Shown here one piece after another: positions 8,616 to 48,840 of a DNA stretch of 64,000 nucleotides. The position numbers were made by a program, and so were the translations under genes. Under the pieces are notes generated by a model. The model worked only from the letters and a program-made list of their open reading frames with translations. It made no database searches and had not been told where the DNA came from. Source of the stretch: Lysobacterales bacterium (GTDB lineage Bacteria > Pseudomonadota > Gammaproteobacteria > Xanthomonadales > Xanthomonadaceae); assembly GCA_038205755.1 (NCBI GenBank), contig JBBRBN010000002.1:14206-78205 (forward strand), written 5' to 3'. Numbering within the stretch: position 1 is the first letter of the stretch; every line of letters begins with the position of its first letter.

Positions 8616-8781
8616 CTAGCCCGCCTATTTCATGAATCTCACACGCCTTCGCTTGTCTCTTGTCCGCACAAGGAACTACCTCAGTCGGTCGTATGGCCCG
8701 CTACGCCGCTCCTTCGGTAGTCCCTTGTGCGAGCAATATCCTGCGCGATCATCGCGCGAATTCATGAAACATGCGGGCTAG
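8616..8781. mobile_element. MITE-like element copy 1 (about 166 bp, terminal inverted repeats CTAGCCCGC-TTTCATGAA ... TTCATGAAACATGCGGGCTAG)
   Basis: One of seven near-identical copies found by direct comparison. It is intergenic, has TIRs and a conserved core CCTCAGTCGGTCGTATGGCCCGCTACGCCGCTCCTTCGG. Confidence 0.8.
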
Positions 8782-8848
8782 CAGCCCGGCCAACCTAAGT
8801 CCGACAGGTTGCTAGAGCGCAACCGCCCGCCACCACACGCACAAAGCA

Positions 8849-10129
8849 ATGACCGACCCCAGCCATCCGCGCTCCTGGTACGCCGCCAGCGTCGAAACAC
8901 CCCCGCTATCGGCGCCACTGGCCGGCACGCAGCGCGCTGATGTCTGCATCCTCGGCGCGGGGATGACCGGACTGTCGACCGCCATTGAGCTGGCCGAGGC
9001 CGGCTACTCGGTCATTGTGCTGGAGGCGCAGCGGGTCGGCTGGGGGGCGTCGGGTCGCAACGGCGGGCAAGCGATCTTCGGGTACGGCTGCGACCAGTCA
9101 AAGCTCGAGGCACTTCTTGGTTACGCAGACGCGCGCCGCGCATTCGACTGGTCACTCGAAGGCATCGAGCTGATCCGAACGCGCTGTGCGAAGTACGCCA
9201 TCGACTGCGACTGGCGTGACGGTCACGCACATGTGCCGATCAAGTCGCGACAGGTCACCGAGCTGCGTCGGCTGCAGGCCGAGTGCGCAGAACGGTATGG
9301 CTATGCGCTGGAGTGGTGGGAGCGTGATCGCCAGCGTGCCGAGATCGCCAGCCGGCGCTACCTCGGTGCACTGTTTGATCCGCGCAGCGGCCATCTGCAC
9401 CCACTCAAGTACACGCTGGGGCTGGCGCAAGCGGCGCGTTCGCTGGGCGTGCGGATCTTCGAACAAAGCAGCGTCGTCGAGTGCGTGCACGGACCCAAGC
9501 CGATGTTGCGCACGGCGTCCGGCTCAGTGCAGTGCGACTACGCGGTGTTGGCCGGCAATGCCCTGGTGCGCGGCATTGCGCCGGCGCTCGACGCGAGAAT
9601 CATGCCGGTCGGCACCTACATCGCGGCCACCGAGCCGCTGGGCGAAGCCGCGGCTACGGCCCTCATTCCGCGCGATATCGCGGTTGCCGACGTCAACTGG
9701 GCGCTGGACTATTTTCGGCGCAGCGCCGACCACCGCCTGCTGTTTGGCGGCCGAGCCAGCTACTCGACCCTTGAACCGCCCAATCTGCCCGGCGTGATGC
9801 GTCGGCGGCTGGGTGGCGTGTTCCCGCAGCTCGCCAACGTGACGCTTGAATACGTCTGGGGCGGCATGATCGACATCAGCCTGAACCGCGCACCGCACTG
9901 GGGGCGGCTCGCTGACAACGTCTACTTTGCGCAAGGCTTCTCCGGCCACGGCGTCAATACCACCGGTCTTGCCGGACGCCTGATCGCCGAGGCGATCCGC
10001 GGCCAGTCCGAGCGCCTCGACGTGTTCCGCCGCATCCAGCACCGCCCGTTTCCCGGTGGGCGCCTGCTGCGCACGCCGCTGCTGGTCGCCGCCATGGCGT
10101 GGTTCAAGCTGAGGGATGCCTTGGGGTGA
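8849..10129 (+). CDS. puuB: FAD-dependent oxidoreductase, gamma-glutamylputrescine oxidase (PuuB/PauB family)
   Basis: 426 aa with an N-terminal Rossmann motif VCILGAGMTGLSTA. It has a DAO-family fold and sits in the polyamine catabolism context. Confidence 0.8.
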   Translation: MTDPSHPRSWYAASVETPPLSAPLAGTQRADVCILGAGMTGLSTAIELAEAGYSVIVLEAQRVGWGASGRNGGQAIFGYGCDQSKLEALLGYADARRAFDWSLEGIELIRTRCAKYAIDCDWRDGHAHVPIKSRQVTELRRLQAECAERYGYALEWWERDRQRAEIASRRYLGALFDPRSGHLHPLKYTLGLAQAARSLGVRIFEQSSVVECVHGPKPMLRTASGSVQCDYAVLAGNALVRGIAPALDARIMPVGTYIAATEPLGEAAATALIPRDIAVADVNWALDYFRRSADHRLLFGGRASYSTLEPPNLPGVMRRRLGGVFPQLANVTLEYVWGGMIDISLNRAPHWGRLADNVYFAQGFSGHGVNTTGLAGRLIAEAIRGQSERLDVFRRIQHRPFPGGRLLRTPLLVAAMAWFKLRDALG

Positions 10130-10137
10130 GCAGGGCT

Positions 10138-10245
10138 TTCGAGTCGCGCAGCGGCGAGCCTGCGAACGCCGGTTGGCCTGCAGGCCAACGGGCTGGGGAG
10201 GCCGATGATCGAGTCGCGCAGCGGCGAGCCTGCGAACGCCGGTTG
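10138..10245. repeat. Two perfect 38-bp direct repeats (TCGAGTCGCGCAGCGGCGAGCCTGCGAACGCCGGTTGG) bracketing an 18-bp perfect palindrome GTTGGCCTGCAGGCCAAC
   Basis: Seen directly, immediately after the puuB stop. The palindrome could act as a terminator hairpin. Confidence 0.7.
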
Positions 10246-10427
10246 GTCTACACGATGCAAGGTCACTCAAGCCGCATAGCGCGGGCTTTTGTCCTCCACC
10301 TTGCCGGCGCTCTTGGCGGCAGTGCGCGGGCGCAGCCAGGCGAAGAAGTCCTGCTCGCTCAGGCTGCCTTCGGCAAGGCCGAGGTAGGGCGGGTACAGCT
10401 CGACATCAGCAGCGCCTCGACCACCTA

Positions 10428-10591
10428 ACCCGGATATTTCATGAATCTCACACGCCCTCGCTTGTCTCTTGTCCGCGCAAGGGATTTTCCTCAGTCGGTC
10501 GTATGGCCCGCTACGCCGCTCCTTCGGTAGTCTCCTGTGCGAACAGCATCCTGCGCGATCATCGCGCGAATTCATGAAATATGCGGGCTAA
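10428..10591. mobile_element. MITE-like element copy 2
   Basis: Same TIRs and core as copy 1. Confidence 0.8.
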
Positions 10592-10640
10592 GTCCGACAG
10601 GCTGCCAGCGGCCGTTCGATCCAGATGATCATTCATGGCC

Positions 10641-10862
10641 TCATTTCGCGAGCTCGTTCAACAAGGTGCGGCGCTTCCGCATGACTTGCTCCGCCACTTC
10701 CATCTGCGCCGCCAGCATCGGGTCGTACACGGTCAGGCGCGCGCCGTCGGGCGTCTCAAACGCGTGCTGCTCGTCGCCCTTCTCAAGCCTGAGGCGCGCA
10801 TGCAGCTCCTTTGGCAGGATGACGCCGGCGGAGTTGCCGACCGTCGTTATCTTCAGCTTCAC
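10641..10862 (-). CDS. AbrB/MazE/SpoVT-family (VapB/MazE-like) antitoxin-type DNA-binding protein, no cognate toxin gene adjacent
   Basis: 73 aa. The N-terminus MKLKITTVGNSAGVILPKEL is a typical swapped-hairpin AbrB-type antitoxin N-terminus. Confidence 0.6.
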   Translation of the reverse strand: MKLKITTVGNSAGVILPKELHARLRLEKGDEQHAFETPDGARLTVYDPMLAAQMEVAEQVMRKRRTLLNELAK

Positions 10863-10920
10863 GGTGACCCCCGATGCTTGGTTATAACTGACGTTATACC
10901 GGCCTGGGGATGGGTGCCTT

Positions 10921-11622
10921 CTATCTGTCCCGCCAGCGACTCGCCCCTAGAAAAATCACCCGCAGCTGGCGGACGAAGTTTTCGATCAGTTCCTTTTCCT
11001 GTTGGTTGCGCCCGGCGGGCAGGTCGAGGATGTCGGAGGCGGCGTTGAGCATGGTGGTTACCACCAGTCCGCATATCATCTGCAACGTTGCGCTTGAGAG
11101 CTCGGGCAGGGTGCCCAGCGTGCGCAGGTCCTGTGCCATCTCCGAGCCGAAGTGGGACTCTTCGGTGCGGATGGCGTTGCGGATCGCGCGCGAGCCGCCG
11201 CCGCGCTCGCGGGCGATGAAACGGAACACCTCGCTGCGTTCGGCGACGAAGCGGCGGTAGATCTGCACCGAGCCACGCAGCATGTCGGTTGGGGGTATGC
11301 CATCCCGACGCGCCTCGCGGAGCAGCCGGCGCAGGGCTGCGCCGCCCATCTCAACCAGCGCCAGCCCCAGCTCATCCAGATCCTTGAAATGTCGATAGAA
11401 CGCCGCCGGCGCAACGCCGGCTTGGCGGGTGATCTCGCGCAGGCTCAAGGCGGTGTAGCCGCTGCCTGCACCGACCAGGGTCAGGGCCGCTTCGATCAGA
11501 CGCTGTCGGGTGCGTTCCTTCTGTTCAACCCGTGACGTGGAAGTCTCTGCTTCGACGCCTTTGGCACTTCGTCTGGCTGCTGGCAATGCCCGCTCCGCGT
11601 GGTCAAGGGTTGGCGGCAGCAA
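10921..11622 (-). CDS. desT: TetR-family transcriptional regulator (DesT-like, divergent from the oxidoreductase-desaturase pair)
   Basis: The HTH region LSLREITRQAGVAPAAFYRHF is a TetR signature. The start codon is uncertain. The gene symbol is assigned by synteny only. Confidence 0.7.
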   Translation of the reverse strand: MLPPTLDHAERALPAARRSAKGVEAETSTSRVEQKERTRQRLIEAALTLVGAGSGYTALSLREITRQAGVAPAAFYRHFKDLDELGLALVEMGGAALRRLLREARRDGIPPTDMLRGSVQIYRRFVAERSEVFRFIARERGGGSRAIRNAIRTEESHFGSEMAQDLRTLGTLPELSSATLQMICGLVVTTMLNAASDILDLPAGRNQQEKELIENFVRQLRVIFLGASRWRDR

Positions 11623-11676
11623 GTATAGGCGCAGGCCCGGTTCAGACTTTTCGAGTAGACGCTCTAGCGAATTTGA

Positions 11677-11692
11677 GTGAACATATGTTCAC
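11677..11692. promoter_or_regulatory. 16-bp perfect palindrome GTGAACATATGTTCAC in the desT/desC divergent intergenic region: candidate TetR (DesT-like) operator
   Basis: Perfect inverted repeat seen directly. TetR regulators bind palindromes of this length, and a TGAAC-GTTCA core is reminiscent of the DesT operator. Confidence 0.5.
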
Positions 11693-11711
11693 CGTAAATC
11701 AGCAGCTCGCC

Positions 11712-12818: not shown

Positions 12819-12837
12819 ACCCCAGGAGACTGCCCGC

Positions 12838-14786: not shown

Positions 14787-14834
14787 GCCAAACCCGGCGC
14801 CTGCCGGTCGCGGCTCCGGCGGCGGTTCGCCGAT

Positions 14835-16340: not shown

Positions 16341-16357
16341 GGTGGCGTCCTCGGGTT

Positions 16358-22258: not shown

Positions 22259-22425
22259 CTAGCCCGCCTGTTTCATGAATCTCGCGCGCCCTCGCTTGTC
22301 GCTTGACCGCGCAAGGGACTACCTCAGTCGGTCGTATGGCCCGCTACGCCGCTCCTTCGGAAAATCGCCTGTGCGAACAACATCCTGCGCGATCATCGCG
22401 CGAATTCATGAAACATGCGGGCTAG
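22259..22425. mobile_element. MITE-like element copy 3
   Basis: Same TIRs and core. Confidence 0.8.
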
Positions 22426-22450: not shown

Positions 22451-23209
22451 ATGAGCAAGTCTGAAACCACCCCCACGGCCGACTTCGGATACCGCGAGGT
22501 CGGGCGCGACGAGAAAGTCAAGCTGGTCGGCAAGGTGTTCACGTCGGTCGCGCACAACTATGACGTGATGAATGACCTGATGAGCTTCGGCCTGCATCGG
22601 GTCTGGAAGCGCTATTTCGTGGCCACCAGTGGCGTCAAGCGCGGTGACCGCGTGCTGGATCTGGCCGGCGGTACTGGCGACATTGCCGCCTTGCTGCATC
22701 CGCGGGTCGGCGACGCGGGTGAAGTGGTGGTGGGTGATATCAACGCTGAGATGCTCAGCGTCGGTCGTGACCGGCTGACCGACCGTGGGCTGGTCCGCGG
22801 CCTTCGCTGGCTGCGACTGAACGCCGAGGCGCTGCCGTTTCCCGACGCCAGCTTCGATCTGGCAACCATTGCATTTGGACTGCGCAATGTCACCGACAGG
22901 CCGGCCGCGCTGCGTGAGCTACAGCGTGTTCTGAAGGTCGGCGGACGCGCGCTGGTGCTGGAGTTCTCGCAGGTCAAAGCAGCCTGGTTCCGGCCGCTGT
23001 ACGACTTCCATGGCTTCCAGGTGCTGCCGCGGCTTGGCCAGCTGTTTGCCGGGGACGCCGACAGCTATCGCTATCTGGCCGAGTCGATTCGCAAACATCC
23101 GCCGCAGGAGGCGCTGCAGGCGATGATGTCCGAGGCCGGTTTTGCGCGCTGCGACCATCGCAACTTGACTGGCGGAATCGTCGCCATCCATTCAGGCTAT
23201 CGGGTCTGA
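22451..23209 (+). CDS. ubiE: Ubiquinone/menaquinone biosynthesis C-methyltransferase UbiE
   Basis: 252 aa from MSKSETT with SAM motif I LDLAGGTGD and UbiE-specific regions. It is flanked on both sides by MITE copies. Confidence 0.85.
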   Translation: MSKSETTPTADFGYREVGRDEKVKLVGKVFTSVAHNYDVMNDLMSFGLHRVWKRYFVATSGVKRGDRVLDLAGGTGDIAALLHPRVGDAGEVVVGDINAEMLSVGRDRLTDRGLVRGLRWLRLNAEALPFPDASFDLATIAFGLRNVTDRPAALRELQRVLKVGGRALVLEFSQVKAAWFRPLYDFHGFQVLPRLGQLFAGDADSYRYLAESIRKHPPQEALQAMMSEAGFARCDHRNLTGGIVAIHSGYRV

Positions 23210-23265
23210 TTGCGTCTTCGCGAACAGCCCGCAGGACTGGGCACTAGCAGCCCGGCCGACCTAAC

Positions 23266-23427
23266 CCGCATGTTTCATGAACCTCGCGCGCCCTCGCTTG
23301 TCTCTTGATCGCGCAGGAGACTGCCTCAGTCGGTCGTATGGCCCGCTACGCCGCTCCTTCGAAAAATCTCCTGTGCGAACAACATCCTGCGCGATTATCG
23401 CGCGAATTCATGAAACCGGCGGGCTAA
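23266..23427. mobile_element. MITE-like element copy 4
   Basis: Same TIRs and core. Confidence 0.8.
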
Positions 23428-23568
23428 GTCCGGCAGGCTGCTAGCGTCAGAATATTTGTGACAAGCGTCACACTAGCGACGGGCGGCTGCCGGTGCAGCG
23501 CCGTCGGTCCCTCGCACGCCTGTCGATCTGCGATCATCGCGGTTCAAAGGCGGTGACCTGCAGTCCCG

Positions 23569-26136
23569 ATGATCGACTCCCAACTGCTATCTGAGCTTCG
23601 CACAGCGGCGACCCGCCGGCTGCTGCCTGTGCTCGGCCAGGTGATGGAGAAGACCGACGACGCGCTGTTTGACGTTTGGCAGCAGGGCGCCGCCGGCAGC
23701 AGTCAACAGGCGCTGTTTGATGCGCTGCGCGAACTGCGCCGACAGCGCTCGGTGATCGAAGGCGCCGTCGGCGACCGGATCGCCGAAGGCTTCAGTGCGC
23801 TCACCCAGGCGCGACGGCCCCGCGAGGATGAGTTTGCCGATGAGCAGCCCGCCGAACTCGAGCTGGGGCTGCTGGATTCGGACGTGCTTGAGGAGCAATT
23901 GACCTGTGATCGCCTCGCCACGGCGGTCGAGCGTCGGCATGGTGAGGCGCTTGGGCGGCTAGGTCGCGGACTGGCTCAGCTGGTCGGTCAGGCCGAGATC
24001 GCGGCGGCTGATCTGCCGCTCGCGCCGCTCAGGATTGCCCGCGCCTGGCGCGATGCGCTGGCTCCTGTGCTGGAGGCGATCGAATGGCGGCTGGTGGCGC
24101 TCAAACATCTGGAGCGCGGCCTGATCAGTGATCTGGGTGGCGTGGTTGACGAGATGTGCCGACTGCTGCAATCGCGCGGTATCGCGATCGCATTGCCGGT
24201 GCAGCGGCCACGCCGCGCGGCAATGTCGGCCAGCCCGGGACAGGTCCGGCCCGCGCGCGAGGAGGCCGCCTGGGACGAGGGTCATAACCAGGTGCCACCG
24301 CGCGGCGCCAACTCGGAGTTTGGCGCCGAATCGTTTTTCGGTGGCGCATCCATGGGCGGTGGCACTGGTGGAGGAGGAGGCGGCGGTGGTGGTGGCGGTG
24401 GCGGTGGCGGCGGCGAAGGCCCCGATCCGGTCTACGAGGCCATGCGCGAGATGTTCGCCGCCTACTTGGGCAACGTCCGCAACGGCAGCATCAACCCCAA
24501 TCCCGGCGCCGCGGTGGGCAAGCCCGAGCCGGCAGCGCCGCAGACACCCGCCATTGACCCGGCGTCGGCCATTCTGGTGCTCAGCAGGCTGCAGCGACAG
24601 CCGACGCCGGCGCTGCTCGCTGCTGTCGATGATCGCGAGGCCGAGCTCGTGGGACTGCTGCGCAACGAGATCGTGCGCACCGCGGTCGCTCTGGGCCGCG
24701 CTCCGGTCGGCGCGCAGATGGAGCCGCACGACGAGCAGGCGCTGACCATGGTCGGCATGCTGTTCGACACGCTGATGGATCAGGGCCACTTCAGCCGCGA
24801 GGTGCGCGAGCGCCTGGTGCGGCTTTATGTGCCCTACGCCAAGATCGCGCTGCTGGACCGGCGGCTGTTTGCCCACAAGCTGCATCCGGCGCGGCGGCTG
24901 CTCAACCTGCTGGCCGAGGCCTGCGATGGCAACGCGGGCGATGCACCGGCCGAGCGGGAGCTGCTGACCAAGGTCTTCTCGGTCAGCGAACGGCTGATCG
25001 ATGCGTTCGAGGAGGACGTTGCGGTCTTTACCGCAGCCGAGGCCGAGTTCAGCGACTTCCTCAGCCGCCACCGGCGCCGCATCGCACTTGCCGAGCAGCG
25101 TGCCGCCGAGGCCCAGCGCGGCCGCGAGCGTCTCGAGGAAGCGCGGCTGGAGGTGACCCTTGAGCTCGACAGCCTGGTCGGCAAGCGCCAGGTGCCCAAA
25201 CCGATCGGCGAGTTCTTCCGCCGCGATTGGACCCATCACCTGACCATGGTCGCGCTGCGTGACGGGGTTGAATCGGATGCCTTCCGCGACGCCCGCGCGC
25301 CCGGCGTGAAGCTTTGGATGGCGCTGCTCGCCTGCGAGACCGGCAGACTGCCGCCGGTGGATCTGGCCGATCAGCTGCTGCCGGCGCTGCGCAGCTCGGG
25401 ACAAGGCGAAGACGTCGCGCGCGCCAATCTCGCTGATGTGATGGCGGCGCTGCAGACGTCCATTCCAAGGCCACCGGCGCCGACACCGCCGGTACCGAAA
25501 CCGCCGGATGTTCAACCGTTGGCCGATGAGGCACGGCCGGTCCGACCCGCAGCGTCCCCAGTCAGCGCCAGTCCGCGACCGCCGGATCCGTTGGCGGCGA
25601 GACTGCCGACCGGCCCATCCGTCAACGGTCAGGCTTCTGGATCGGTGCCGCCGGTTCGGCCGGCAGCGCCTGCTGGCGCGATTTCACCCGCAGCAGCGGT
25701 GGCGCCGGCAATCGAGCGCGTCGCAGTCGACCCGCCGCCGATATTCGAACTGGTGTCCGCAGCGCCCGAGCCGCCGCCACTGGTCAAGACCTCTGCGGCC
25801 GTGGAGGGCGATATCCGCCTGAATGCCGACACCAGCCTGGCGCTCCCGGAGCTGGTCGAGCAGGTCAAGCAGCTGACGGTCGGGACGTGGGTGGAGTTTG
25901 TCCAGGTCGACGGCTCGATCCAGCCGGCCAAGCTCAGCTGGATCAGCCCAATCTCCTCGCGCATGCTGTTCGTCAACCGCCGCGGTCTGCGCATGTGCAC
26001 GGTGTCGGCCGAAGAGCTGGCCGCCCTGATGGCCGACAACAAGCTTTCCTTGCGAAAAGTGGATGCCGCGTTCGACCGCGCCATGACCCAGGTGCTCGAC
26101 CAGCTGCGCACTGGCGCCGCGCCGGCGCCCACCTGA
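23569..26136 (+). CDS. Large hypothetical protein (possibly DUF1631 family) with internal poly-Gly tract and Pro/Ala-rich linker
   Basis: 855 aa with good GC3 bias. The conserved-looking C-terminus is VGTWVEFVQVDGSIQPAKLSWISPISSRMLFVNRRGLR. The family call is from memory only. Confidence 0.55.
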   Translation: MIDSQLLSELRTAATRRLLPVLGQVMEKTDDALFDVWQQGAAGSSQQALFDALRELRRQRSVIEGAVGDRIAEGFSALTQARRPREDEFADEQPAELELGLLDSDVLEEQLTCDRLATAVERRHGEALGRLGRGLAQLVGQAEIAAADLPLAPLRIARAWRDALAPVLEAIEWRLVALKHLERGLISDLGGVVDEMCRLLQSRGIAIALPVQRPRRAAMSASPGQVRPAREEAAWDEGHNQVPPRGANSEFGAESFFGGASMGGGTGGGGGGGGGGGGGGGGEGPDPVYEAMREMFAAYLGNVRNGSINPNPGAAVGKPEPAAPQTPAIDPASAILVLSRLQRQPTPALLAAVDDREAELVGLLRNEIVRTAVALGRAPVGAQMEPHDEQALTMVGMLFDTLMDQGHFSREVRERLVRLYVPYAKIALLDRRLFAHKLHPARRLLNLLAEACDGNAGDAPAERELLTKVFSVSERLIDAFEEDVAVFTAAEAEFSDFLSRHRRRIALAEQRAAEAQRGRERLEEARLEVTLELDSLVGKRQVPKPIGEFFRRDWTHHLTMVALRDGVESDAFRDARAPGVKLWMALLACETGRLPPVDLADQLLPALRSSGQGEDVARANLADVMAALQTSIPRPPAPTPPVPKPPDVQPLADEARPVRPAASPVSASPRPPDPLAARLPTGPSVNGQASGSVPPVRPAAPAGAISPAAAVAPAIERVAVDPPPIFELVSAAPEPPPLVKTSAAVEGDIRLNADTSLALPELVEQVKQLTVGTWVEFVQVDGSIQPAKLSWISPISSRMLFVNRRGLRMCTVSAEELAALMADNKLSLRKVDAAFDRAMTQVLDQLRTGAAPAPT
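24355..24413 (+). repeat. GGN-codon microsatellite encoding about 20 consecutive glycines inside the 855-aa ORF
   Basis: Seen directly: GGCGGTGGCACTGGTGGAGGAGGAGGCGGCGGTGGTGGTGGCGGTGGCGGTGGCGGCGGC. Confidence 0.8.
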
Positions 26137-26168
26137 GTCCGGCAGGCTGCTGGCCCGCCGCTCACAGT

Positions 26169-30895: not shown

Positions 30896-30982
30896 TGCAG
30901 GAACAGGTCTGGGTTGTTCGCGGTTGACTGCGACCGCCATTGCAATTGTGGTGACCATTATTTTCGCTCCGGAGTCTTCGTC

Positions 30983-33019
30983 ATGAACACCGCCGTGCTG
31001 CTGCCTGTGCTGATCACGTTCGTCAGCGTCATTGTCGTCATCTTTGGCCTGTTCGGCCTGTTCAAGGCCTTCTACATCAAGGTCCCGCAGGGCACCGCGC
31101 TGATCGTCAACGACATGTCGCCCATGCCCAAGGTGCACTTCACCGGGGCGCTGGTGTATCCGGTGATCTACAAGAAGGAGTTCATGAAGATCTCCCTGAT
31201 CACGCTGGAGGTTGACCGGCGTGGCAAGGACGGGCTGATCTGCAAGGACAACATGCGCGCCGACATCACCGTGGCCTTCTACCTGCGCGTCAACGAGACC
31301 CAGCAGGACGTGCTCAAGGTGGCCAAGGCGATTGGGGTGGATCGGGCGTCCGAGAAGGGCGCGGTGAATGAGCTGTTCAACGCCAAGTTCTCCGAGGCGC
31401 TGAAGACGGTCGGCAAGAAGATCGACTTCGTCAATCTGTTCGAGAACCGGCAGGAGTTCCGCGACCGCATCGTCGAGGTGATTGGCAACGACTTGAATGG
31501 CTACGTGCTTGAAGACGTGGCGATCGACTATCTCGAGCAGACGCCGAAGTCCTCCCTCGATCCGCACAATATTCTGGACGCCGAAGGCATCCGCAAGATC
31601 ACCGAGCTGACCGCCCGGCAGAACGTCATCACCAACGAGCTTGAGCGCAACGAAGAGCTGGCGATCACCAAGAAAAACGTCGAGACCAAGGAAGCGCTGC
31701 TGGCGCTCGCCCGTCAACAGTCCGACGCCGAGGCCAAGCAGCAGCGCGAGATCGCCATCATCCAGGCGCGCGAAACCGCCGAAACCCTGAAGGTCCAGCA
31801 GGAGGAGCGACTGAAGTCCGAGCAGGCGCGCATCTCGGTGCAGGAGCAGCTCGACATCCGCGAGCAGAACCACCAGCGCGAAGTCGAAGTGGCCGATCAG
31901 AACCGCCAGCGTGCGGTGGTCATCGAGGTCGAAAAGGTGACCCGTGCGAAGGCGCTGGAAATCGTCTCGCGCGAGCGCGAAGTAGAGCTGCAGAAGATCG
32001 ACAAGGAGAAGGCGCTGGAAATCCAGCGCAAGGAAATCGCCAACGTGGTGCGCGAGCGCATCGCGGTGGACAAGACGGTGGCGCAGGAGGAGGAGCGCAT
32101 CAAGGAGGTGCGCGAGGTGTCGGAGGCCGACCGCAACAAGCAGGTCGCCATCCTCAATGCGCAGGCGCTGGCCGAGGAAGAGCTGGTGCGCCAGGTCAAG
32201 CAGGCTGAAGCCGACGAGACCAAGTCGCGGCACAAGGCGGTCGAAATCACGGTGACGGCACAGGCCGAGCTGGAGGCCGCCGGCAAGCACGCCGAGGCGA
32301 AGAAGAAGCTCGCCGAGGGCATCGAGGCCGAGCGCGCGGCGCCGGGCCTGGCGGATGCGCGGGTCCGTGAAGTGACGGCGGCAGCGATGGAAAAGGAGGG
32401 GCTGGCCGAAGCCAAGGTGGTTGCCGAAAGACTCGTTGCCGAAGCGCGCGGCGAGCAGGAAAAGGGCTTCGCGCAGGCGCGGGTGATCGAGGCGCAGGCG
32501 GAAGCCAAGCAGAAGGAAGGCCTGGCCGAAGCCAAGGTGCTGGAGGAAAAGCTCGGCGCCCAGGCGCGCGGTGACGCGCATCTGGCCAATGCCAAGGCAT
32601 TGGCGATCCGCGAGGTTGGTTCAGCGGAAGCCAGCATCATGCTGCAGAAGTACGAGGCTGAGGCGCAGGGTCTGGGCAAGAAGTTCGCTGCGCTCGATGA
32701 GCTGAGCGATGGCGCCCGCGCCCACGAAGAGTTCCGCATGCAGCTCGAGAAGAGCTTCGAGCAGGCGATGGCCGGCATCGCGGCAAACAAGGAAATCGCC
32801 CGCGATCAGGCCGACGTGCTGGCCGCCGCACTGTCCAAGGCGAAGGTCGACATCGTTGGCGGCAGCGGCGAGTTCTTCGAGTCGTTCGCCAAGGCGCTGT
32901 CGGTTGGCAAGGCGATCGAAGGGGTAGCCGGCAAGAGCCCGGTGGTGCAGGAGCTGCTGGCGAAGTTCATGGGTGGCAAGCCGGCGGCGTCCGCTGGCAG
33001 TGAGTCGACACCGGAGTAG
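30983..33019 (+). CDS. Flotillin / SPFH (band-7) family protein, YqiK-like, with long C-terminal EA-rich coiled coil
   Basis: 678 aa from MNTAVLL. It has an N-terminal TM segment, an SPFH domain (ALIVNDMS...ADITVAFYLRV) and repeated EAK/ARxxE heptads typical of flotillins. Confidence 0.85.
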   Translation: MNTAVLLPVLITFVSVIVVIFGLFGLFKAFYIKVPQGTALIVNDMSPMPKVHFTGALVYPVIYKKEFMKISLITLEVDRRGKDGLICKDNMRADITVAFYLRVNETQQDVLKVAKAIGVDRASEKGAVNELFNAKFSEALKTVGKKIDFVNLFENRQEFRDRIVEVIGNDLNGYVLEDVAIDYLEQTPKSSLDPHNILDAEGIRKITELTARQNVITNELERNEELAITKKNVETKEALLALARQQSDAEAKQQREIAIIQARETAETLKVQQEERLKSEQARISVQEQLDIREQNHQREVEVADQNRQRAVVIEVEKVTRAKALEIVSREREVELQKIDKEKALEIQRKEIANVVRERIAVDKTVAQEEERIKEVREVSEADRNKQVAILNAQALAEEELVRQVKQAEADETKSRHKAVEITVTAQAELEAAGKHAEAKKKLAEGIEAERAAPGLADARVREVTAAAMEKEGLAEAKVVAERLVAEARGEQEKGFAQARVIEAQAEAKQKEGLAEAKVLEEKLGAQARGDAHLANAKALAIREVGSAEASIMLQKYEAEAQGLGKKFAALDELSDGARAHEEFRMQLEKSFEQAMAGIAANKEIARDQADVLAAALSKAKVDIVGGSGEFFESFAKALSVGKAIEGVAGKSPVVQELLAKFMGGKPAASAGSESTPE

Positions 33020-40163: not shown

Positions 40164-40691
40164 ATGACCCGCGTCGCCAGTTGTCCATTGCCCGATGCAG
40201 CCCTGCTGCAGCGCTACGCGACCAGCGGCGGTTACACCGACTGTTACCGGGCGGCGCTGCCGGTCAGAGTGAGCCATGCGGCCTTTGTCGAGGCGTTCTA
40301 CTGCACGCCGCTGTTCAAGCTGGAGCGCCTGGTGCTGCGGCTGGCGGCACGCCGCCCCAGCTCGGATGAACAGGCGCGACAACTGGCGACCGGCGAGCGC
40401 GACAGCTTCGCCGCGTGGTCGGTGGAGGCGCGCGCGCCACAGCAGCTGCTGCTGTGCGATTTTCTGGGCCGCACGCGGTCCTGGCTGATGGTGGCGCCGG
40501 TCGACGCCAGGAACGAAAAATCGACCTGGCTGTACTTTGGCTCCGCGGTCGTGCCGGCTGTCAATTCGCGCGGCGGTCCGCCGCCGCTGGGCGCACCGTT
40601 CAGCGCCCTGCTCGGCGTCCATCGCCTGTACTCCCGCGCCCTGCTGGCCGCCGCTTGCCGCCGCCTGCTGGCCAACTCGCAAGTTTCATGA
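40164..40691 (+). CDS. Hypothetical protein (DUF2867-like?), 176 aa
   Basis: Start chosen at MTRVASCPL. The ORF-track N-terminus (39942) overlaps ndh antisense. The 3' end runs into a solo MITE TIR fragment. Confidence 0.45.
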   Translation: MTRVASCPLPDAALLQRYATSGGYTDCYRAALPVRVSHAAFVEAFYCTPLFKLERLVLRLAARRPSSDEQARQLATGERDSFAAWSVEARAPQQLLLCDFLGRTRSWLMVAPVDARNEKSTWLYFGSAVVPAVNSRGGPPPLGAPFSALLGVHRLYSRALLAAACRRLLANSQVS

Positions 40692-40702
40692 ACTCGCGCG
40701 AG
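40685..40702. repeat. Solo fragment of the MITE terminal inverted repeat (GTTTCATGAACTCGCGCG)
   Basis: Matches the 5' TIR of the MITE family. It is not followed by the core. Confidence 0.5.
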
Positions 40703-40815
40703 GAGCGCGAAGGATAGTGGGCTCTCGAGTGAATTTCCCCGCCAACCTCCCAAGTGCCACGTTCAGCTTGCTCACTTTGGGGTTGTTCTGGACTCGGAAA
40801 ACGCCCCTCAACCTT

Positions 40816-40978
40816 GCCCGCATGTTTCATGAATCTCGCGCGCCCTCGCTTGTCTCTTGTCCGCACAAGGGATTTTCCTCAGTCGGTCGTATGGCCCGCT
40901 ACGCCGCTCCTTCGGTAGTCCCTTGTGCGAACAACATCCTGCGCGATCATCGCGCGAATTCATGAAGCATGCGGGCTA
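40816..40978. mobile_element. MITE-like element copy 5
   Basis: Same TIRs and core. Confidence 0.8.
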
Positions 40979-41129
40979 GCAGCCTGTGGGACGTAGGTCG
41001 GCCGGCTGCCAGCGGCACCGATGCGGGCGCCGGAAAAGGGGGCCGAGGAAATCAATAACCTGACTGCAGCCCCTTTGCGCTGCCTACCGTCGCCGTGGCA
41101 CCCTGCCGCCACCGATCATCCTGAGGAGT

Positions 41130-41480
41130 TTGTACATGCCGAGAGCGACGCTCGTGTTCGCCGCGCTGCTGATCGCCTTGGGCGTCGGCGCGTTCCTCTG
41201 GTCCGGCAGCCGGACCGCGCTGCTGCCGGCCTACGCCGGCCTCGCGCTCGTGATCCTCGCTGGCCTCGCGCTCGCGTTCGAGGGCGGGCGGCGGCACCTG
41301 ATGCACTTCGCCGCCGTCGTTGCGCTGCTTGGCGCGCTGGCCCCGGCCGCGACGCTCGGCATCCGGGCGGCTCAGATGAGCCCGCTCGCGCTGATGGTCA
41401 ACATCGGCATGCTCGTGCTCTGCGGCGGGCTGCTCGCACTGATGGTGCGGTCCTTCGTTGCCGCGCGCCGAGCGGCCTGA
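41130..41480 (+). CDS. Small hydrophobic membrane protein (3-4 TM), hypothetical
   Basis: 116 aa, almost entirely Ala/Leu/Gly/Val TM segments. It is followed by a terminator. Confidence 0.45.
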   Translation: MYMPRATLVFAALLIALGVGAFLWSGSRTALLPAYAGLALVILAGLALAFEGGRRHLMHFAAVVALLGALAPAATLGIRAAQMSPLALMVNIGMLVLCGGLLALMVRSFVAARRAA

Positions 41481-41544
41481 CGCCGCGGCGCGCTTCTGGC
41501 GACCCATCGCATGGTCGGGGAAAAAGGCGGCGCCCGGAACAGGT

Positions 41545-41580
41545 GACGGCGGAAACCAACACCTTCCGCCGCCGTCTTTG
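41545..41580 (+). terminator. Rho-independent terminator GACGGCGGAA-ACCAACACC-TTCCGCCGCCGTC followed by TTTG
   Basis: Seen directly, 65 nt after the small membrane ORF. Confidence 0.55.
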
Positions 41581-41683
41581 CGCGCTGCGAACGGTCCTGG
41601 GGTCAGGGGCTTTGCGGTCAGGTGCAGCGGGACCTGATCAGGAGCGTGGTGAGAGAACCTGGTTCGATTCTGGAGCCTGATCG

Positions 41684-41908
41684 CCGCATGACGCCGCGTT
41701 TCATCAGACGGTCTTCCGGATCGAAGAACAGCGTGCGCGCCGGCACGCGCAGCACTTCGAACGGCTCGTCGGCCGCCTGCGCGTACTCGGGCGCCACCAG
41801 CGTCACCGCGTGGCCGCGTTCGTGCAGCCAGCGTGCAGCGGTGCGGATTGAGGTGGATACGCCGTTGACGCGCGGGAAATAGACGTCGCTCAGCATGAGG
41901 ATGTTCAT
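41684..41908 (-). pseudogene. N-terminal fragment (about 75 codons) of a GT4-family glycosyltransferase
   Basis: MNILMLSDVYFPRVNGVSTSIRTAARWLHERGHAVTLVAPEY is a canonical GT4 N-terminus. The frame then terminates and no remainder of the enzyme follows. Confidence 0.45.
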
Positions 41909-42127
41909 GCGCACGAGCATCGCCGCCAAAGATTGCGGCAGTGCGACGAGATTCGGAAAATCGGCGCGCGCATGAATGACAAGCTGGGCGCTCCCAGTTC
42001 AGCGAGCCGGAACGACGAGCAGCTCGTCGCGATGAGCCGCCGCGAACTCCGCAAACGTGATCGCTGCCCGGGACGCGGCCAGGCCGCAGAAAGCCTTTGC
42101 CGGCTGGCGCGGCAGTCAGGCCCGAGG

Positions 42128-42799
42128 TCAGCTCAGCAGATCGTAAGGACCGCCCTTTGCCAGCGCCCGCAGGTAGGCCGGGCGGGCGTGAATGGCATCC
42201 AGAAAGCGCTGCAGATTCGGCCGCTTCTTGAAGCCCATGCGGGCGCCTGCGGCTTCCACCGGAAAGCTCATCTGGACGTCGGCGGCGCTGAACGTGCGGC
42301 CGCCGAACCAGGGGGTCTCGGCCAGCTCCGATTCGAGGTAGTCAAAGTGCAGCTTGAGCTGCGGGTTGACGAAGCTGCTCAGCACTTTGTTGGCGATTCC
42401 GCGGGCGACCGGGCGGATGAAGAACGGCATCGGCGCGGTCTTCAGCTTGGAGAAGATCAGCGTCAGCAGCAGTGGCGGCATCGCCGAGCCTTCCGCGTAA
42501 TGCAGCCAGTAGTTGAAGCGCACCCGCGCCTTGGCGTCGGGTGCGGGAGAGCGCGTGCGCTCGGGATCGTAGTGGTCGACCAGGTATTCGACGATCGCGC
42601 CGGACTCCGCCAGCACCAGGCCATCAACCTCGACCAGCGGCGACTTGCCCAGCGGGTGCAGCTTCTTCAGCGCCGGCGGCGCCAGCATGCTTACCGGGTC
42701 GCGCTCGTAGCGGATCACCTCGTACTCCAGCCCGAGCTCCTCCAACAGCCACAGGATGCGCTGCGAGCGCGAATTGTTCAGATGGTGGACTCGGATCAT
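42128..42799 (-). CDS. Glutathione S-transferase
   Basis: 224 aa from MIRVHHL. The thioredoxin-like N-domain with SRSQRILWLLEELGLEY and a helical C-domain are present. The upstream extension in the ORF track is MITE-derived. Confidence 0.85.
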   Translation of the reverse strand: MIRVHHLNNSRSQRILWLLEELGLEYEVIRYERDPVSMLAPPALKKLHPLGKSPLVEVDGLVLAESGAIVEYLVDHYDPERTRSPAPDAKARVRFNYWLHYAEGSAMPPLLLTLIFSKLKTAPMPFFIRPVARGIANKVLSSFVNPQLKLHFDYLESELAETPWFGGRTFSAADVQMSFPVEAAGARMGFKKRPNLQRFLDAIHARPAYLRALAKGGPYDLLS

Positions 42800-42863
42800 G
42801 TCGAAGCTCGATAAGGAGTGGGATGCAGCATGATGGGGCGCGCGGCGCGGCGCGGCCATCCCG

Positions 42864-43019
42864 CCCGCACATTTCATGAATCTCACGCGCCCTCGTTTGT
42901 CGCTTGTCCGCACCGGAGACTGTCCTCAGTCGGTCGTATGGCCCGATACGGCGCTCCTTCGGAAAATCTCCCGTGCGAACTACACCCTGCGCGGTCATCG
43001 CGCGAATTCATGAAACATG
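42864..43019. mobile_element. MITE-like element copy 6 (most diverged copy)
   Basis: Same TIRs and core, with several substitutions. Confidence 0.75.
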
Positions 43020-43048
43020 CGGACTAGAATGCGCGTCCACTCACTCTG

Positions 43049-44131
43049 GTGCATCCCCACGTGTCCGCCGATCCCGCACTTGAAACCCTGTTGCTGCCGA
43101 TTTCCGAGCGGCGGCTGCGCTGGCCGACGGAGGGTGGTGCGCTGTTCCTGCGGGCACGAGATGGCTGGCCGCTGCACCGCCAGCCCTTGCCAGGGCTGCG
43201 CTGCGAGCAGCCGTTCAAGCCGGAGGTCGATGCGCTGCTGCGCTCCGGCATCGAGGTCGCAGCCAGCGTCGAGGCCGATGCGCGCTTTCCGCTGATCCTG
43301 CTGCTGCCGCCGCGGCAGCGCGATGAGGCGCGGGCGCTGTACGCGCAGGCGCTGGCGCGGCTGAGTCCCGGCGGCGTGCTGCTGGCCTGCCAGTCCAATG
43401 ATGAGGGCGCCCGATCCAGCGAAGCCGATCTGACCCGGCTGGCCGGGCCGCTGATGGTCCTGTGCAAGCACAAGTGCCGGGTGTTCTGGACCCGGCCGGG
43501 GTCACCGGCAGATGTCGACCTGCTGGAGCAATGGCGCACGCTGGATGCGCCGCGACCAATCATGGATGGCCGCTTTGTCAGTCGCCCGGGCGTATTCGCC
43601 TGGGACCGCGCGGATGCGGCGTCGAACCTGCTGGCTGAGCATCTGCCGACCGACCTTTGCGGGCGGGCTGCCGATCTGGGGGCGGGTTACGGGTACCTGT
43701 CCTCCGAGCTGCTGCGGCGCTGTCCCGGCGTTACCTCGCTGGATGCGTTTGAGGCTGACGCGCGAGCGCTGGCGTTGGCCGAGCGAAACCTGGCCGGCTT
43801 CGCGTCGCACGCCACGTTGGGCTTTCATTGGCACGATGTGACCTGCGGGTTGGCGCAGCGCTACCACGTCATCGTCAGCAATCCGCCGTTCCACGCGCAG
43901 CAAGGTGAGGCGCGTCCCGACATCGGACGCCGCTTCATCAGTGCGGCCGCCGATGCGCTGCTGCCGGGCGGTCGGCTGTTTCTGGTCGCCAACCGCCATT
44001 TGCCCTATGAGGCGGTGCTGGACAGCGGCTTTGCCGAGGCCAGGGCGCTGACTCAGCAGCACGGCTTCAAGGTGATCGAGGCGATCAAGTCGGCTGCCGC
44101 GCCAAAGCCCGCCGCGCCGGCGCGGCGATGA
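43049..44131 (+). CDS. Class I SAM-dependent rRNA (guanine-N2) methyltransferase, RsmC/RsmD-like
   Basis: NPPFH catalytic motif and SAM motif I DLGAGYGYLS. Confidence 0.7.
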   Translation: MHPHVSADPALETLLLPISERRLRWPTEGGALFLRARDGWPLHRQPLPGLRCEQPFKPEVDALLRSGIEVAASVEADARFPLILLLPPRQRDEARALYAQALARLSPGGVLLACQSNDEGARSSEADLTRLAGPLMVLCKHKCRVFWTRPGSPADVDLLEQWRTLDAPRPIMDGRFVSRPGVFAWDRADAASNLLAEHLPTDLCGRAADLGAGYGYLSSELLRRCPGVTSLDAFEADARALALAERNLAGFASHATLGFHWHDVTCGLAQRYHVIVSNPPFHAQQGEARPDIGRRFISAAADALLPGGRLFLVANRHLPYEAVLDSGFAEARALTQQHGFKVIEAIKSAAAPKPAAPARR

Positions 44132-44889: not shown

Positions 44890-44926
44890 TGCACGACCCG
44901 CCGCGCCGCGTGTCCCGCCCGCGCGC

Positions 44927-45565: not shown

Positions 45566-45752
45566 CGAAAAGCGCTGGGCGTGGGCTGGCGGTGTCCGCC
45601 AGAGCGCACGCGAACACGGCAGTCAACGGCAGGCAGAGTCAGGTCCTGAAAGGTGGTGCGGGCCATGGAGCCAGCGGAACAGCAGGCCGTGCCGGTTCGG
45701 ATCGCCTGAGGGCACGGGAGTTCCCCCGGCGACGTGGCGCCGACTGCCTGTT

Positions 45753-46001
45753 TCAGGTGCCCGCAAACCCGAGCTTGCCACTGAGTTCCGCCAGCCGCGC
45801 CTTCATCGCGGCGTCGACTTCGTCGGGCTGGATCTTCTGGATGATTGATCGCAGCACCCGCACCTCGTTGGCGTCGAACTTGCCATCGCGCTCGGCAATC
45901 GCGATCAGCTTGCCGAGTTCGTCGGCATCGAGCCGGCCATCGTTGGCGAAACAGTTGATCGACTTGAAGGACAGCTCAAGATAGTCGCGGCTCTCGCTCA
46001 T
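45753..46001 (-). CDS. Small hypothetical protein (82 aa), acidic and helical
   Basis: ORF with non-low-complexity sequence. No motif recognised. Confidence 0.35.
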   Translation of the reverse strand: MSESRDYLELSFKSINCFANDGRLDADELGKLIAIAERDGKFDANEVRVLRSIIQKIQPDEVDAAMKARLAELSGKLGFAGT

Positions 46002-46011
46002 TTCCTACGTC

Positions 46012-47748
46012 CTATGGTTGTCTTGCGGGTTGGCGGGAATCGGCGCTGGCGTCGCGGGCAGCCTTGAAGGCGTTGCCCTCATACCAGTTGGGCCACTGGT
46101 TGCCGCTGGCCAGCTGATTGCCGAGCTGGTACACCGCCAGCAGGTCTTCGACCAAGCCGCTCATGTCCCAGGACGGATCGAACGCGTCGCCTGGCTGGTG
46201 GTAGCGCGAGCGGATGTACTCGGCCTGTGCCTCGATGCCGTAGGTTTCGCCCTTCTCGAAGTGATCGGCGCCGCCCTTCGCATACAGCGCCGGCACGCCG
46301 GCCTTGGCGAAGTTGAAATGGTCGGAGCGGAAGAAGAAGCCCTTCTCGGGCGCCGATTCCGGCCGCAGAATGCGGCTCTGGCGCTCGGCGATCGGCCGCA
46401 GAATGTCTTCCAGCTCGGAGTTGCCAAAGCCGATCACGGTCAGGTCGCGGGTGCGGCCAATCACGGGCAGCGCATCCAGGTTGACGACTGCCACGGTCTT
46501 ATCCAGCGCGATGCTGGGGTGCGCCACGTAGTACTTGGACCCGAGCAGGCCGGACTCCTCCAGCGTCACGGCGACAAACAGCACTGAACGCTCCGGCGGC
46601 GTTTCGCGCGTCACGAAGCGTTCGGCGATCTCCAGCACGCCGGCCACCCCGGTGGCATTGTCGACCGCGCCATTGAAGATGGTGTCGCCCTCCAGCGTGG
46701 GGTCGATGCCCAGATGGTCCCAGTGGGCCACGTAGATCACCGCCTCGTCGGGCCGCGCGCTGCCCGGCAGCAAACCCAGCACGTTGCGGGATTCGCCCCG
46801 GCTGATTTCACTCTTCACGGTGACGCTCATGCTGGTTGCCAGCGGCACTGGCGCGAAGCCAGGCGTGCTGGCTGCCTTGCGCAGCTCCGCAAAATCCAGC
46901 CCGGCGCGCTCGAACAGCGCGCTGGCGGCCTCAGCGGTCAGCCAGCCCTGGACGGGCAGGCGGGGTGACGGGTCCTCACTGGCGGGCAGATCGAACTGCG
47001 CTCCGCTCCAGCCGTTGGCGATCACTTCCCAACCGTAGCCGGCGCCTTCGGTATCGTGAATGATCAGCGCCGCCGCAGCGCCCTGCCGGGCTGCCTCTTC
47101 GTACTTGTACGTCCAGCGGCCGTAGTAGGTCATCCGCTTGCCGAGGAACAGGTTCTCATCACCGACGTGGAAGCCGGGATCGTTGACCAGGATCACGACC
47201 GTTTTGCCGCGGACGTCCACGCTGTAGTCGTTCCAGTTCGACTCCGGGGAATTCACGCCATAGCCGACGAACAGCAGCTCGCTGTTTTCGATGTTGACCT
47301 CCGCCTGGCCGGTCGAGGTGCCGATCACCATGTCGCGCCCGACGCCCAGCGTCTGACTCCCCTGGGCGTCGCGCAGCGTCAGCTCGGTGGTTGGATCAAT
47401 ACGGGTCTGGACCATCGGCACGGTCTGCGTGTAGCTGTCGCCGTTGCCAGGCTGCAGGCCCAGGCGCTTGAACTGGCTGACGATGTATTCGACCGTCAGC
47501 TGCTCGCCAACGCCGCCCGGCGCGCGGCCTTCGAACGCATCCGAGGCGAGCACCTGGACGTGTTGGGCGATGTCTTCGGCCGAGATATCCGGCCCGAAGG
47601 TGTAGTCGGCGGCGGCCGTTGGGGCGCTGGTTGCAGCAGCCGGCGCCGCCGATTCGGCGACCGGCGGCGTGTCGGGCTGGCACCCGGCCAGCAGCGTGAC
47701 GAGCAGTGCCGCTGCGGTGCGGGCGAGGAGGGTGCGGGTTGCATGCAT
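46012..47748 (-). CDS. M28-family zinc aminopeptidase with PA domain, lipoprotein
   Basis: Start MHATRTLLA...LLAGC (lipobox). Zn-ligand regions HWDHLG, NGAVDNATG and TLEESGLLGS. Confidence 0.8.
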   Translation of the reverse strand: MHATRTLLARTAAALLVTLLAGCQPDTPPVAESAAPAAATSAPTAAADYTFGPDISAEDIAQHVQVLASDAFEGRAPGGVGEQLTVEYIVSQFKRLGLQPGNGDSYTQTVPMVQTRIDPTTELTLRDAQGSQTLGVGRDMVIGTSTGQAEVNIENSELLFVGYGVNSPESNWNDYSVDVRGKTVVILVNDPGFHVGDENLFLGKRMTYYGRWTYKYEEAARQGAAAALIIHDTEGAGYGWEVIANGWSGAQFDLPASEDPSPRLPVQGWLTAEAASALFERAGLDFAELRKAASTPGFAPVPLATSMSVTVKSEISRGESRNVLGLLPGSARPDEAVIYVAHWDHLGIDPTLEGDTIFNGAVDNATGVAGVLEIAERFVTRETPPERSVLFVAVTLEESGLLGSKYYVAHPSIALDKTVAVVNLDALPVIGRTRDLTVIGFGNSELEDILRPIAERQSRILRPESAPEKGFFFRSDHFNFAKAGVPALYAKGGADHFEKGETYGIEAQAEYIRSRYHQPGDAFDPSWDMSGLVEDLLAVYQLGNQLASGNQWPNWYEGNAFKAARDASADSRQPARQP

Positions 47749-47893
47749 GTCGAATCGGATCCAGCGGTCGAACCCCTGATTGTAGCCACCCGCCGCCCAC
47801 CGCGTCGCGGCGGCCGCACGACAGTGCGGCTTGACGTCGTTCCGGGGATCGGCAGACCGCGTCGTTGGGGTCTGCCGACAGCGACCTGACCGA

Positions 47894-48568
47894 TCAGTTG
47901 CTGCGCTCGATCTCGAGCGGTTGCGCCTTGGCTCCGCGGACGGCGCCGATCTTTGCGCTGGGGTCAACCCGCAGGTCGACCTCGCGCTCAAACACCAGCT
48001 CACCTTCAACCACGCTGTTGGCGCCAATCACGACCCGCGGCACGCGCGGCGTTGAGCTGTTGAACCACCCGGTGGACGGCTTCTGAACCAGAATGCCGCC
48101 ACGGACATGACTGCCGTTGAGTATGTCGATGTCGCCGTTGACCGTCTCGATGCCGCGCCCGACCTGCGCCGCGTCGAGCCGGATGCTGCCGTTGACGGTG
48201 CTCACCTGGCCGCCAACTGAACTGCCGGCATCCAGCGAGATCGCGCCGTTGACGGTCTCGGCGTCGCCATCGATGCGTGCGGACCGACCGGCGCTGATGC
48301 CGCCATTGACGGTTTCGGCATCGCCAAGCTGCGCACGCTCGCCAATGGCGATGCTGCCGTTCACGGTTTCGGCGCTGCCCGCAACCACGTCAGGGGCGAC
48401 GTTGATGCTGCCGTTGACGGTCTCGAGGTCGCCATACTCGACGCCCGCTTCGGTTCGGATTGCGCCGTTGACCTTGTCGATATCCACCGGGGCAGCGGCC
48501 GACGGCAGCGGCTGCAGGGCGCCAACGACAAGGACGGCGGCAATGGCGAAAGAGCGGATGGGTGACAT
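47894..48568 (-). CDS. Secreted repeat protein with about 9 iterations of ETVNG(S/A/G)I, beta-helix-like (DUF4097/GIN-domain-like)
   Basis: Signal peptide MSPIRSFAIAAVLVVGALQPLPSAAAP. The ORF-track N-terminal extension is MITE-derived and is rejected. Confidence 0.6.
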   Translation of the reverse strand: MSPIRSFAIAAVLVVGALQPLPSAAAPVDIDKVNGAIRTEAGVEYGDLETVNGSINVAPDVVAGSAETVNGSIAIGERAQLGDAETVNGGISAGRSARIDGDAETVNGAISLDAGSSVGGQVSTVNGSIRLDAAQVGRGIETVNGDIDILNGSHVRGGILVQKPSTGWFNSSTPRVPRVVIGANSVVEGELVFEREVDLRVDPSAKIGAVRGAKAQPLEIERSN

Positions 48569-48676
48569 GGGGTTCTCCAGGTGGGCGAAAGAAGATGATC
48601 GGAAGCTTGGATGCGCGGTCGCGGCAAAGGGTTTAACCCGCTGGACAGCCGCAGCGCATGCGCTGGCAGGGGCTAA

Positions 48677-48840
48677 CCCGCCTATCTCATGAATCTCATA
48701 CGCCCTCGCTTGTCTCTTGTCCGCGCAAGGGATTTTCCTCAGTCGGTCGTATGGCCCGATACGACGCTCCTTCGGAAAATCCCTTGTGCGAACACTATCC
48801 TGCGCGATCATCGAGCGAATTCATGAAACATGCGGGCTAG
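48677..48840. mobile_element. MITE-like element copy 7
   Basis: Same TIRs and core. Confidence 0.8.

Follow-up and report, generated by a model that had tools for sequence, protein, structure and literature searches.

Short hairpin repeats in a 64-kb Lysobacterales sequence as probable IS1380-type miniature transposable elements

Copies and anatomy of the repeat

The DNA analysed here, called the window in what follows, is a 64-kb stretch of contig JBBRBN010000002.1 from a Lysobacterales bacterium. It has a G+C content of 66%, roughly 70% of the genes predicted in it are on the plus strand and its GC skew is mildly positive. Among its genes, which include an arginase-family gene, ubiE, a GST gene and the iPGM gene, lie copies of a short repeat that the initial annotation had described as an abundant transposable element of the miniature inverted-repeat kind (MITE), with seven full copies and one solo terminal repeat. 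Direct-repeat detection and alignment of the seven copies gave a family of about 165 bp with a mean column identity of 83%. For the copy census, a nhmmer profile was built from the seven claimed copies and run on the window. It returned exactly seven full copies, all on the plus strand, with E-values of 1e-54 to 1e-58 (Table 1), which bears out the number claimed. Each full copy is 158-160 bp long, plus 4-bp flanks. The positions first given hold to within a few bases except for copy 6, whose end is at 43027 and not at 43019, and what had been taken for a solo terminal repeat at 40685-40702 is actually a decayed fragment of the right half in the opposite orientation.

The alignment also agrees with the terminal inverted repeats and nearly invariant core that had been described. 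From the outside to the inside, the element consists of the terminal repeat, two arms, an inner stem and an apex. The terminal inverted repeats are 17 bp long, CCCGnnnnnTTCATGAA on the left and TTCATGAAnnnnnCGGG on the right, with the layout CCCG-nnnnn-TTCATGAA. The subterminal arms (left TCTCRCGCGCCCTCGCTTG, right CCTGCGCGATCATCGCG) are conserved and are not complementary to each other. The apex consists of CTCAGTCGG, then a small hairpin, then CGCTCCTTCGG, and is almost invariant among the window copies. Each copy forms a long imperfect hairpin, with folding z-scores of -9.5 for the plus strand and -10.6 for the minus strand relative to shuffled sequences. The copies have no coding capacity: their lengths vary by 1-2 nt, so that no reading frame is preserved, and this rules out an open reading frame (ORF) running through the element.

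All copies had been called intergenic. This is the case for six of them, whereas copy 2 possibly lies within a decayed toxin-antitoxin locus, for which the indications are weak. On the minus strand of 10270-10920, taking out copy 2 together with one CTAA joins two pieces into a 68-codon ORF, located downstream of a TetR gene and of a 73-codon MazE/AbrB-like ORF whose Pfam score of 22.3 bits falls just short of the cut-off. Pfam gives no match for the 68-aa product. Judged from this arrangement, the locus may be a toxin-antitoxin locus in decay that was disrupted by copy 2. We rejected a Doc-toxin remnant as the disrupted gene, as Pfam gives it no support and the neighbouring MazE-like antitoxin stays below the cut-off.

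Table 1 Repeat copies and small palindromes in the window. Positions count from the first letter of the window. Flanks are given as left/right.
Feature	Position	Strand	Details	Evidence
MITE copy 1	8616..8781 (element 8620-8777)	+	flanks CTAG/CTAG	nhmmer E 1.5e-55, alignment
MITE copy 2	10425..10591 (element 10429-10587)	+	flanks CTAA/CTAA; inside CTAA of small palindrome-like sequence	
MITE copy 3	22259..22425 (element 22263-22421)	+	flanks CTAG/CTAG; between arginase-family gene and ubiE	
MITE copy 4	23261..23427 (element 23265-23423)	+	flanks CTAA/CTAA; splits small palindrome at its CTAA	
MITE copy 5	40813..40979 (element 40817-40975)	+	flanks CTTG/CTAG	nhmmer
MITE copy 6	42860..43027 (element 42864-43023)	+	flanks CCCG/CTAG; between divergent GST gene (-) and methyltransferase gene (+)	
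MITE copy 7	48673..48840 (element 48677-48836)	+	flanks CTAA/CTAG; upstream of iPGM gene	
Decayed right-half MITE remnant, 63 nt	40676..40738	-	nhmmer model positions 102-164	nhmmer E 3.4e-9, sequence
Intact 30-bp palindrome	8782..8811		CAGCCCGGCCAACCTAAGTCCGACAGGTTG; flanked by CTAG, single CTAA in loop	
Small palindrome split by copy 4	23248-23264 with 23424-23440			
Small palindrome split by copy 2	~10408-10424 with 10588-10604			
Small-palindrome variant	26120-26149		after DUF1631 gene	
Small-palindrome variant	40980-41012		after copy 5	

Target site and insertion polymorphism

The target duplication is a 4-bp YTAR sequence, mostly CTAG or CTAA. We compared the flanks of 12 copies that had been recovered through the core and are hence unselected on flanks. 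The left and right flanks are identical in 8 of the 12 (among them CTAG/CTAG five times and CTAA/CTAA twice), and the two flanks vary together across copies, as a duplicated target should. The CTAG at the ends, which had been suspected to be either the target or its duplication, is, like CTAA, both.

A second small repeat family accompanies the MITE in the window. It is a 30-bp palindrome with the consensus CAGCCCGGCCrACCTAAGTCCGrCAGGyTG, often flanked by CTAG, and possibly represents either a REP-like hairpin or a separate, very small mobile element. Copy 4 splits one such palindrome exactly at the CTAA (...GACCTAA, the element, then CTAAGTCC...), and copy 2 splits another likewise. The intact palindrome listed in Table 1 is a paralogous 'empty site' for these two copies and allows the empty and filled states to be compared precisely.

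Sites of this kind are scarce. CTAG is strongly depleted in the window, with 27 sites observed where base composition predicts 199 and a Markov model 61; CTAA (12 sites), TTAG (8) and TTAA (4) are likewise rare. The MITE flanks supply 7 of the 27 CTAG and 5 of the 12 CTAA sites. Together, MITE flanks and small palindromes account for many of the few sites of these kinds in the window.

The initial annotation had drawn attention to two pairs of copies that bracket gene sets, namely ubiE between copies 3 and 4 and the GST region between copies 5 and 6. The real start of ubiE is at 22451. In relatives, the identity of ubiE to that of the window is 87% (L070), 85% (L071) and 84% (L066-68). In both L070 and L071 the arginase-family gene overlaps ubiE by 4 bp and neither region flanking ubiE contains the MITE, so that copies 3 and 4 are absent; in L066-68, where these two genes overlap as well, copy 3 is absent at the orthologous ubiE site. 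The element is thus subject to insertion polymorphism at this locus. As the relatives keep the gene order without the MITEs, copies 3 and 4 inserted independently of each other and do not bound a composite transposon. With ubiE in the same place without any elements, it is by chance that copies bracket ubiE and the GST region.

An identical UbiE protein was found, in the collections searched, only on one 2,970-bp Logan contig. The Logan contig L069 (SRR15443080; ubiE 100% identical to the window), apparently from the same species as the window, carries at 1-2132 a 2.13-kb element of the IS1634 family that is absent from the window. This element lies directly against the very CTAG by which copy 3 is flanked on the right. 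Therefore, CTAG sites are apparently shared hot spots: they seem to receive several kinds of mobile elements, and the occupation of this one seems to differ between strains. The L069 element encodes a transposase of 651 aa (NF033559, 258 bits). It was considered as the parent of the MITE and ruled out by its differing ends (CCCATCTTCGTC). No relatives of it were found in viral contigs.

Copies in other genomes

An invariant 22-mer of the core was found on 13 contigs of four metagenome-assembled genomes (MAGs) of Gammaproteobacteria: a Wenzhouxiangella sp., a Lysobacterales bacterium and two unclassified genomes. The copies are accordingly dispersed, with seven and a remnant in 64 kb and further ones in four other genome assemblies, and restriction to this region, which would have favoured a local regulatory motif, does not apply, as other genomes and metagenomes contain the element as well. 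In three of the MAG copies the two inverted repeats have been altered in parallel (CCCGAACAATTCATGAA with TTCATGAATTGTTCGGG). As many of the MAG copies sit at contig ends, short-read assemblies are broken by these MITEs.

BLAST of one copy against plasmid and phage collections gave no match, and neither did a search for the core pattern in viral contigs. A loose inverted-repeat pattern returned, in viral contigs, mostly chance matches and one unrelated MITE with the same ends. The latter, at L043 801-1044 (IMGVR_UViG_3300015264_000082, classed as viral), is a different hairpin MITE of 236 bp with ends CCCGCATTATTCATGAA and CTAG/CTAG flanks. Same-ended MITEs may also be crowded: an estuary-sediment contig (L102, WOR8_10026448) has at least three in 6.4 kb (916-1076, near 3220 and 5011-5309), a density even higher than that of the window.

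Link to IS1380-family insertion sequences

We scanned JGI metagenomes with the end pattern CTAGCCCGNNNNNTTCATGAA and obtained at least 120 stretches, of which nearly all those examined are real elements and not chance matches. The scan gave at least 56 short elements with paired ends, 92-382 bp long (mode 178 bp), with the CTAG flank of the scan pattern on one side. Their interiors vary. On the side where the pattern did not fix the flank, 30 of 56 elements among the matches listed have CTAG and 38 of 56 have YTAR.

The same scan gave at least seven full-length elements of 1667-1774 bp (L109, L135, L137, L152, L164, L172 and L177), with the same ends, YTAR flanks on both sides and a single ORF. 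The transposases of L109 and L137 score 373 and 388 bits on the NCBIfam model NF033539 (cut-off 180) and 430 and 493 bits on the Pfam model PF13701 (DDE_Tnp_1_4); those of the other five are tblastn homologues of these two. The inverted repeat of the window matches the right end of the L109 and L164 elements at 15 of 17 bases. Insertion sequences with matching terminal repeats, which the initial annotation had proposed to look for, exist in at least seven versions, with transposases of the IS1380 type.

In the IS1380 family (IS1380A, IS1247, ISEcp1) target duplications of 4-5 bp are known, with which the 4 bp of the window MITE agrees. The full-length same-ended elements resemble this family in their 1.67-1.77 kb, their single ORF and their scores on the IS1380 models; IS1247, for example, has 1672 bp and a 5-bp duplication (PMC3281130). 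The window MITE differs from the family in having no transposase and in an interior that is not found in the full-length elements listed. The nearest named plasmid-borne element is IS1380A of Acetobacter, with about 38% protein identity and different ends. On account of this low identity and these other ends, the CTAG-targeting clade whose ends read CCCGnnnnnTTCATGAA forms a branch of its own within the IS1380 family.

Taken at the level of sequence, the element has all the features by which a bacterial MITE is recognised. The target duplication, the copies elsewhere, the empty ubiE loci of relatives and the full-length insertion sequences with the same ends all uphold the MITE interpretation, and we regard it as very probable that the element is a non-coding MITE of IS1380 type, linked to a clade of IS1380-family insertion sequences. 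It is presumably moved in trans, and tblastn found no transposase of the IS1380 or IS1634 type in the window, where the absence of a cognate enzyme had already been noted. A DDE transposase of the IS1380 family, encoded elsewhere in the genome now or formerly, would bind both inverted repeats and insert the MITE into rare CTAG or CTAA sites with staggered cuts four bases apart. In this 66% GC genome the majority of such sites would fall at the ends of genes or in small hairpins between them, and copies would therefore pile up between genes. The interior, with its maintained hairpin and conserved loop motifs, probably serves the element's own propagation or stability.

Several observations weigh against this interpretation. 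The window has no tblastn homologue of the transposases of the full-length elements. Among the matches listed, no full-length element has the subterminal arms of the MITE, and a parent was not found. The interior of the MITE is more conserved than the variable part of its inverted repeats, and none of the full-length elements recovered has the apex motif; given these two points, the MITE is not a simple internal-deletion derivative. Lastly, plain cut-and-paste transposition into a palindromic target does not predict that all seven copies share one orientation.

With regard to annotation, the seven repeats and the remnant should be marked as MITE copies and not as regulatory sites or composite-transposon boundaries. 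They are an ordinary kind of bacterial selfish DNA, belonging to a widespread family with an unusually well conserved hairpin. More generally, the combination of the CCCGnnnnnTTCATGAA end with a CTAG target characterises a large group of IS1380-linked MITEs from environmental bacteria that has apparently gone undescribed. Our literature search found no published description of a MITE linked to IS1380, and the family is not mentioned in a 2024 review of prokaryotic MITEs.

Orientation of the copies

All seven full copies have the same orientation (two-sided p = 0.016). Five of them are co-oriented with the upstream gene, doubtful neighbours having been checked by Pfam. At other loci, where gene calls were crude, this applies to 13 of 18 copies, often a few bases from the stop codon, which brings the combined count to 18 of 25 (p = 0.04). 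L150 has two copies of opposing orientation, each in line with the gene upstream of it. These numbers weakly suggest a shared orientation as a general rule. One possibility is that the bias results from selection against having the better-folding strand on the lagging-strand template.

Conserved interior

For the interior, we used ten diverged relatives recovered via the inverted-repeat pattern, with interiors unselected, from contigs of 41-61% GC (L136, L076, L116, L080, L175, L178, L150 with two copies, L158 and L181). A hairpin model of 44 pairs was tested for covariation on an alignment of 20 sequences. Of all cells, 90.1% are paired, compared to 35-46% when the partners are slid by 1-3 columns. 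Compensatory changes occur in 22 of the 44 pairs and are spread over all three helices, and none of 500 shuffles reaches the observed values. The helix of the terminal repeats is 93.6% paired over the 20 members, with compensatory changes in 5 of its pairs.

Conservation extends to positions outside the helices. The unpaired arms and two CTCnnTCGG motifs beside the apical hairpin are kept across hosts of 41-66% GC, and between the two motifs the 'nn' dinucleotides change in concert (AG with CT, CC with GG). A similar apex, CTGCGACGTACC..GGTACGCCTCGG, is present in the commonest same-ended MITE family, that of 178 bp, and in none of the seven full-length elements listed. The two strands are also unequal: in 20 of 20 members, RNA of the minus strand has a better fold than its plus-strand counterpart, by a mean of 14 kcal/mol, and at paired positions there are 35 A-C combinations compared to 15 G-T. 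Features of this kind would fit a selected single-stranded structure, of RNA or DNA, of benefit to the element or to the host.

Two observations call for caution here. At the base of the apex there are two pairs of variants, CTACC with GGTAG and ATTTTCC with GGAAAAT (alignment columns ~80-87 and ~123-130). Left and right variants are matched only in copies 1 and 7 and are mixed in the other five of the seven window copies, a pattern that suggests recombination, exchange or conversion between copies. In L006 (191-350) a perfect palindrome, CCTCAGTCGGTCGTATGGCCCGATACGACCGACTGAGG, has taken the place of the asymmetric apex, as would be expected from template switching between the hairpin arms; the apex being now a perfect palindrome, such switching does appear to occur.

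The core had been suggested to encode a structured RNA. The structure itself is supported by the covariation, whereas Rfam offers no match for it. At the gathering score, the only Rfam match in the whole window is a tRNA. A search by E-value on 40600-43100 gave, on the copies, only one chance-level microRNA match (E 2.4). Promoter and terminator consensus scans over four copies found no site within an element; the single terminator-like match touching copy 1 straddles the junction of its right end with the adjacent palindrome.

The alternative to be taken most seriously is that the element is in the main a structured nucleic acid with a function of its own, spreading like a MITE, which would be compatible with its being a MITE. 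It could act as an RNA in the 3' or 5' untranslated regions of adjacent genes (a transcript stabiliser, a processing site or a small RNA) or as a single-stranded DNA hairpin. Covariation in all three helices would be accounted for, as would unpaired motifs that are invariant across hosts of 41-66% GC, an apex motif that is common to the second, 178-bp MITE family and absent from full-length elements, the strand asymmetry (better folding of minus-strand RNA, A-C excess over G-T) and the orientation bias (7 of 7 window copies; about 18 of 25 co-oriented with the upstream gene). However, hairpin arms can stay complementary by template switching without selection, as the L006 apex illustrates, and left and right apex-base variants are mismatched in 5 of 7 window copies. 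Moreover, Rfam has no match, no promoter or terminator consensus lies in the elements, and the orientation statistics outside the window come from crude gene calls and are weak (p ~0.04-0.1). We consider this alternative unlikely.

A broader proposal combines it with the IS1380 link. The element would belong to an old, lineage-crossing MITE superfamily that parasitises one IS1380 clade, and its interior would be a selected structured module, not a residue of insertion-sequence DNA, made up of covarying stems and the invariant loop motifs CTCnnTCGG, a hairpin and CGCTCnnTCGG, with a consistent strand asymmetry as a further property. We put this forward as a speculation and hold it to be unlikely. 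If it is true, the module could boost mobilisation as a single-stranded hairpin or, alternatively, serve the host as an RNA at the ends of genes, which would account for the orientation bias. A hairpin core conserved across hosts of 41-66% GC is, in any case, a tractable case for what MITEs need beyond inverted repeats.

Comparison with other elements

Hairpin MITEs such as Correia/CREE of Neisseria, ERIC, Nezha, Chunjie and MITEPye1 are likewise short, non-coding, intergenic and present in many copies. Classical MITEs have terminal inverted repeats, target duplications and stable stem-loops (PMC3184786; PMC11578231; PMC10969869). Parent family and target differ from those of the window family, whose hairpin is kept by compensatory changes across the GC range. 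MITEPye1 is linked to IS1182 (PMC11578231). Chunjie has 9-bp target duplications (PMC3184786), which rules it out as the same family.

The 4-bp CTAG/CTAA duplication might also suggest a MITE of the IS5 family, since the IS5 group, too, duplicates a 4-bp YTAR/CTAG target (ISfinder). IS5-group elements and their MITEs resemble the window MITE in this respect and differ in the type of transposase: all seven full-length elements listed carry transposases of the IS1380 type, two according to family models and five as homologues. An IS5 origin is therefore very improbable.

Hardly credible at all are REP/REPIN palindromes moved by a RAYT, or attC sites of a chromosomal integron, even though integron attC sites are same-orientation repeats between gene cassettes and the window copies are long hairpins that all point in one direction with genes between them. 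Both are opposed by the target-site duplications and by ends that are common with DDE-type insertion sequences. Against attC sites, the copies are irregularly spaced (1 to 17.5 kb) and lack GTTRRRY/RYYYAAC core sites at their ends, which read CCCG... and ...CGGG, and the intervening genes are of housekeeping type (ubiE, arginase family, iPGM, glutamine-synthetase type) and syntenic in relatives free of the repeat. REP/REPIN with RAYT was rejected on the target duplication; the window has no transposase of IS1380 or IS1634 type, and RAYT was not searched for as such.

Other repeats in the window

Further repeats were seen in the window. Two direct repeats of 44 nt (10139-10182 and 10209-10252) follow closely on the FAD-oxidoreductase gene; their identity is 95%, their distance 70 nt, and each ends in a short palindrome, which in the first is GTTGGCCTGCAGGCCAAC. 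At 32344-32574 a 111-nt internal direct repeat occurs twice inside a 701-aa ORF (30914-33019). Finally, a 77-nt direct repeat occurs three times at 48123-48475, in a region without Pfam matches between the M28 peptidase gene and copy 7.

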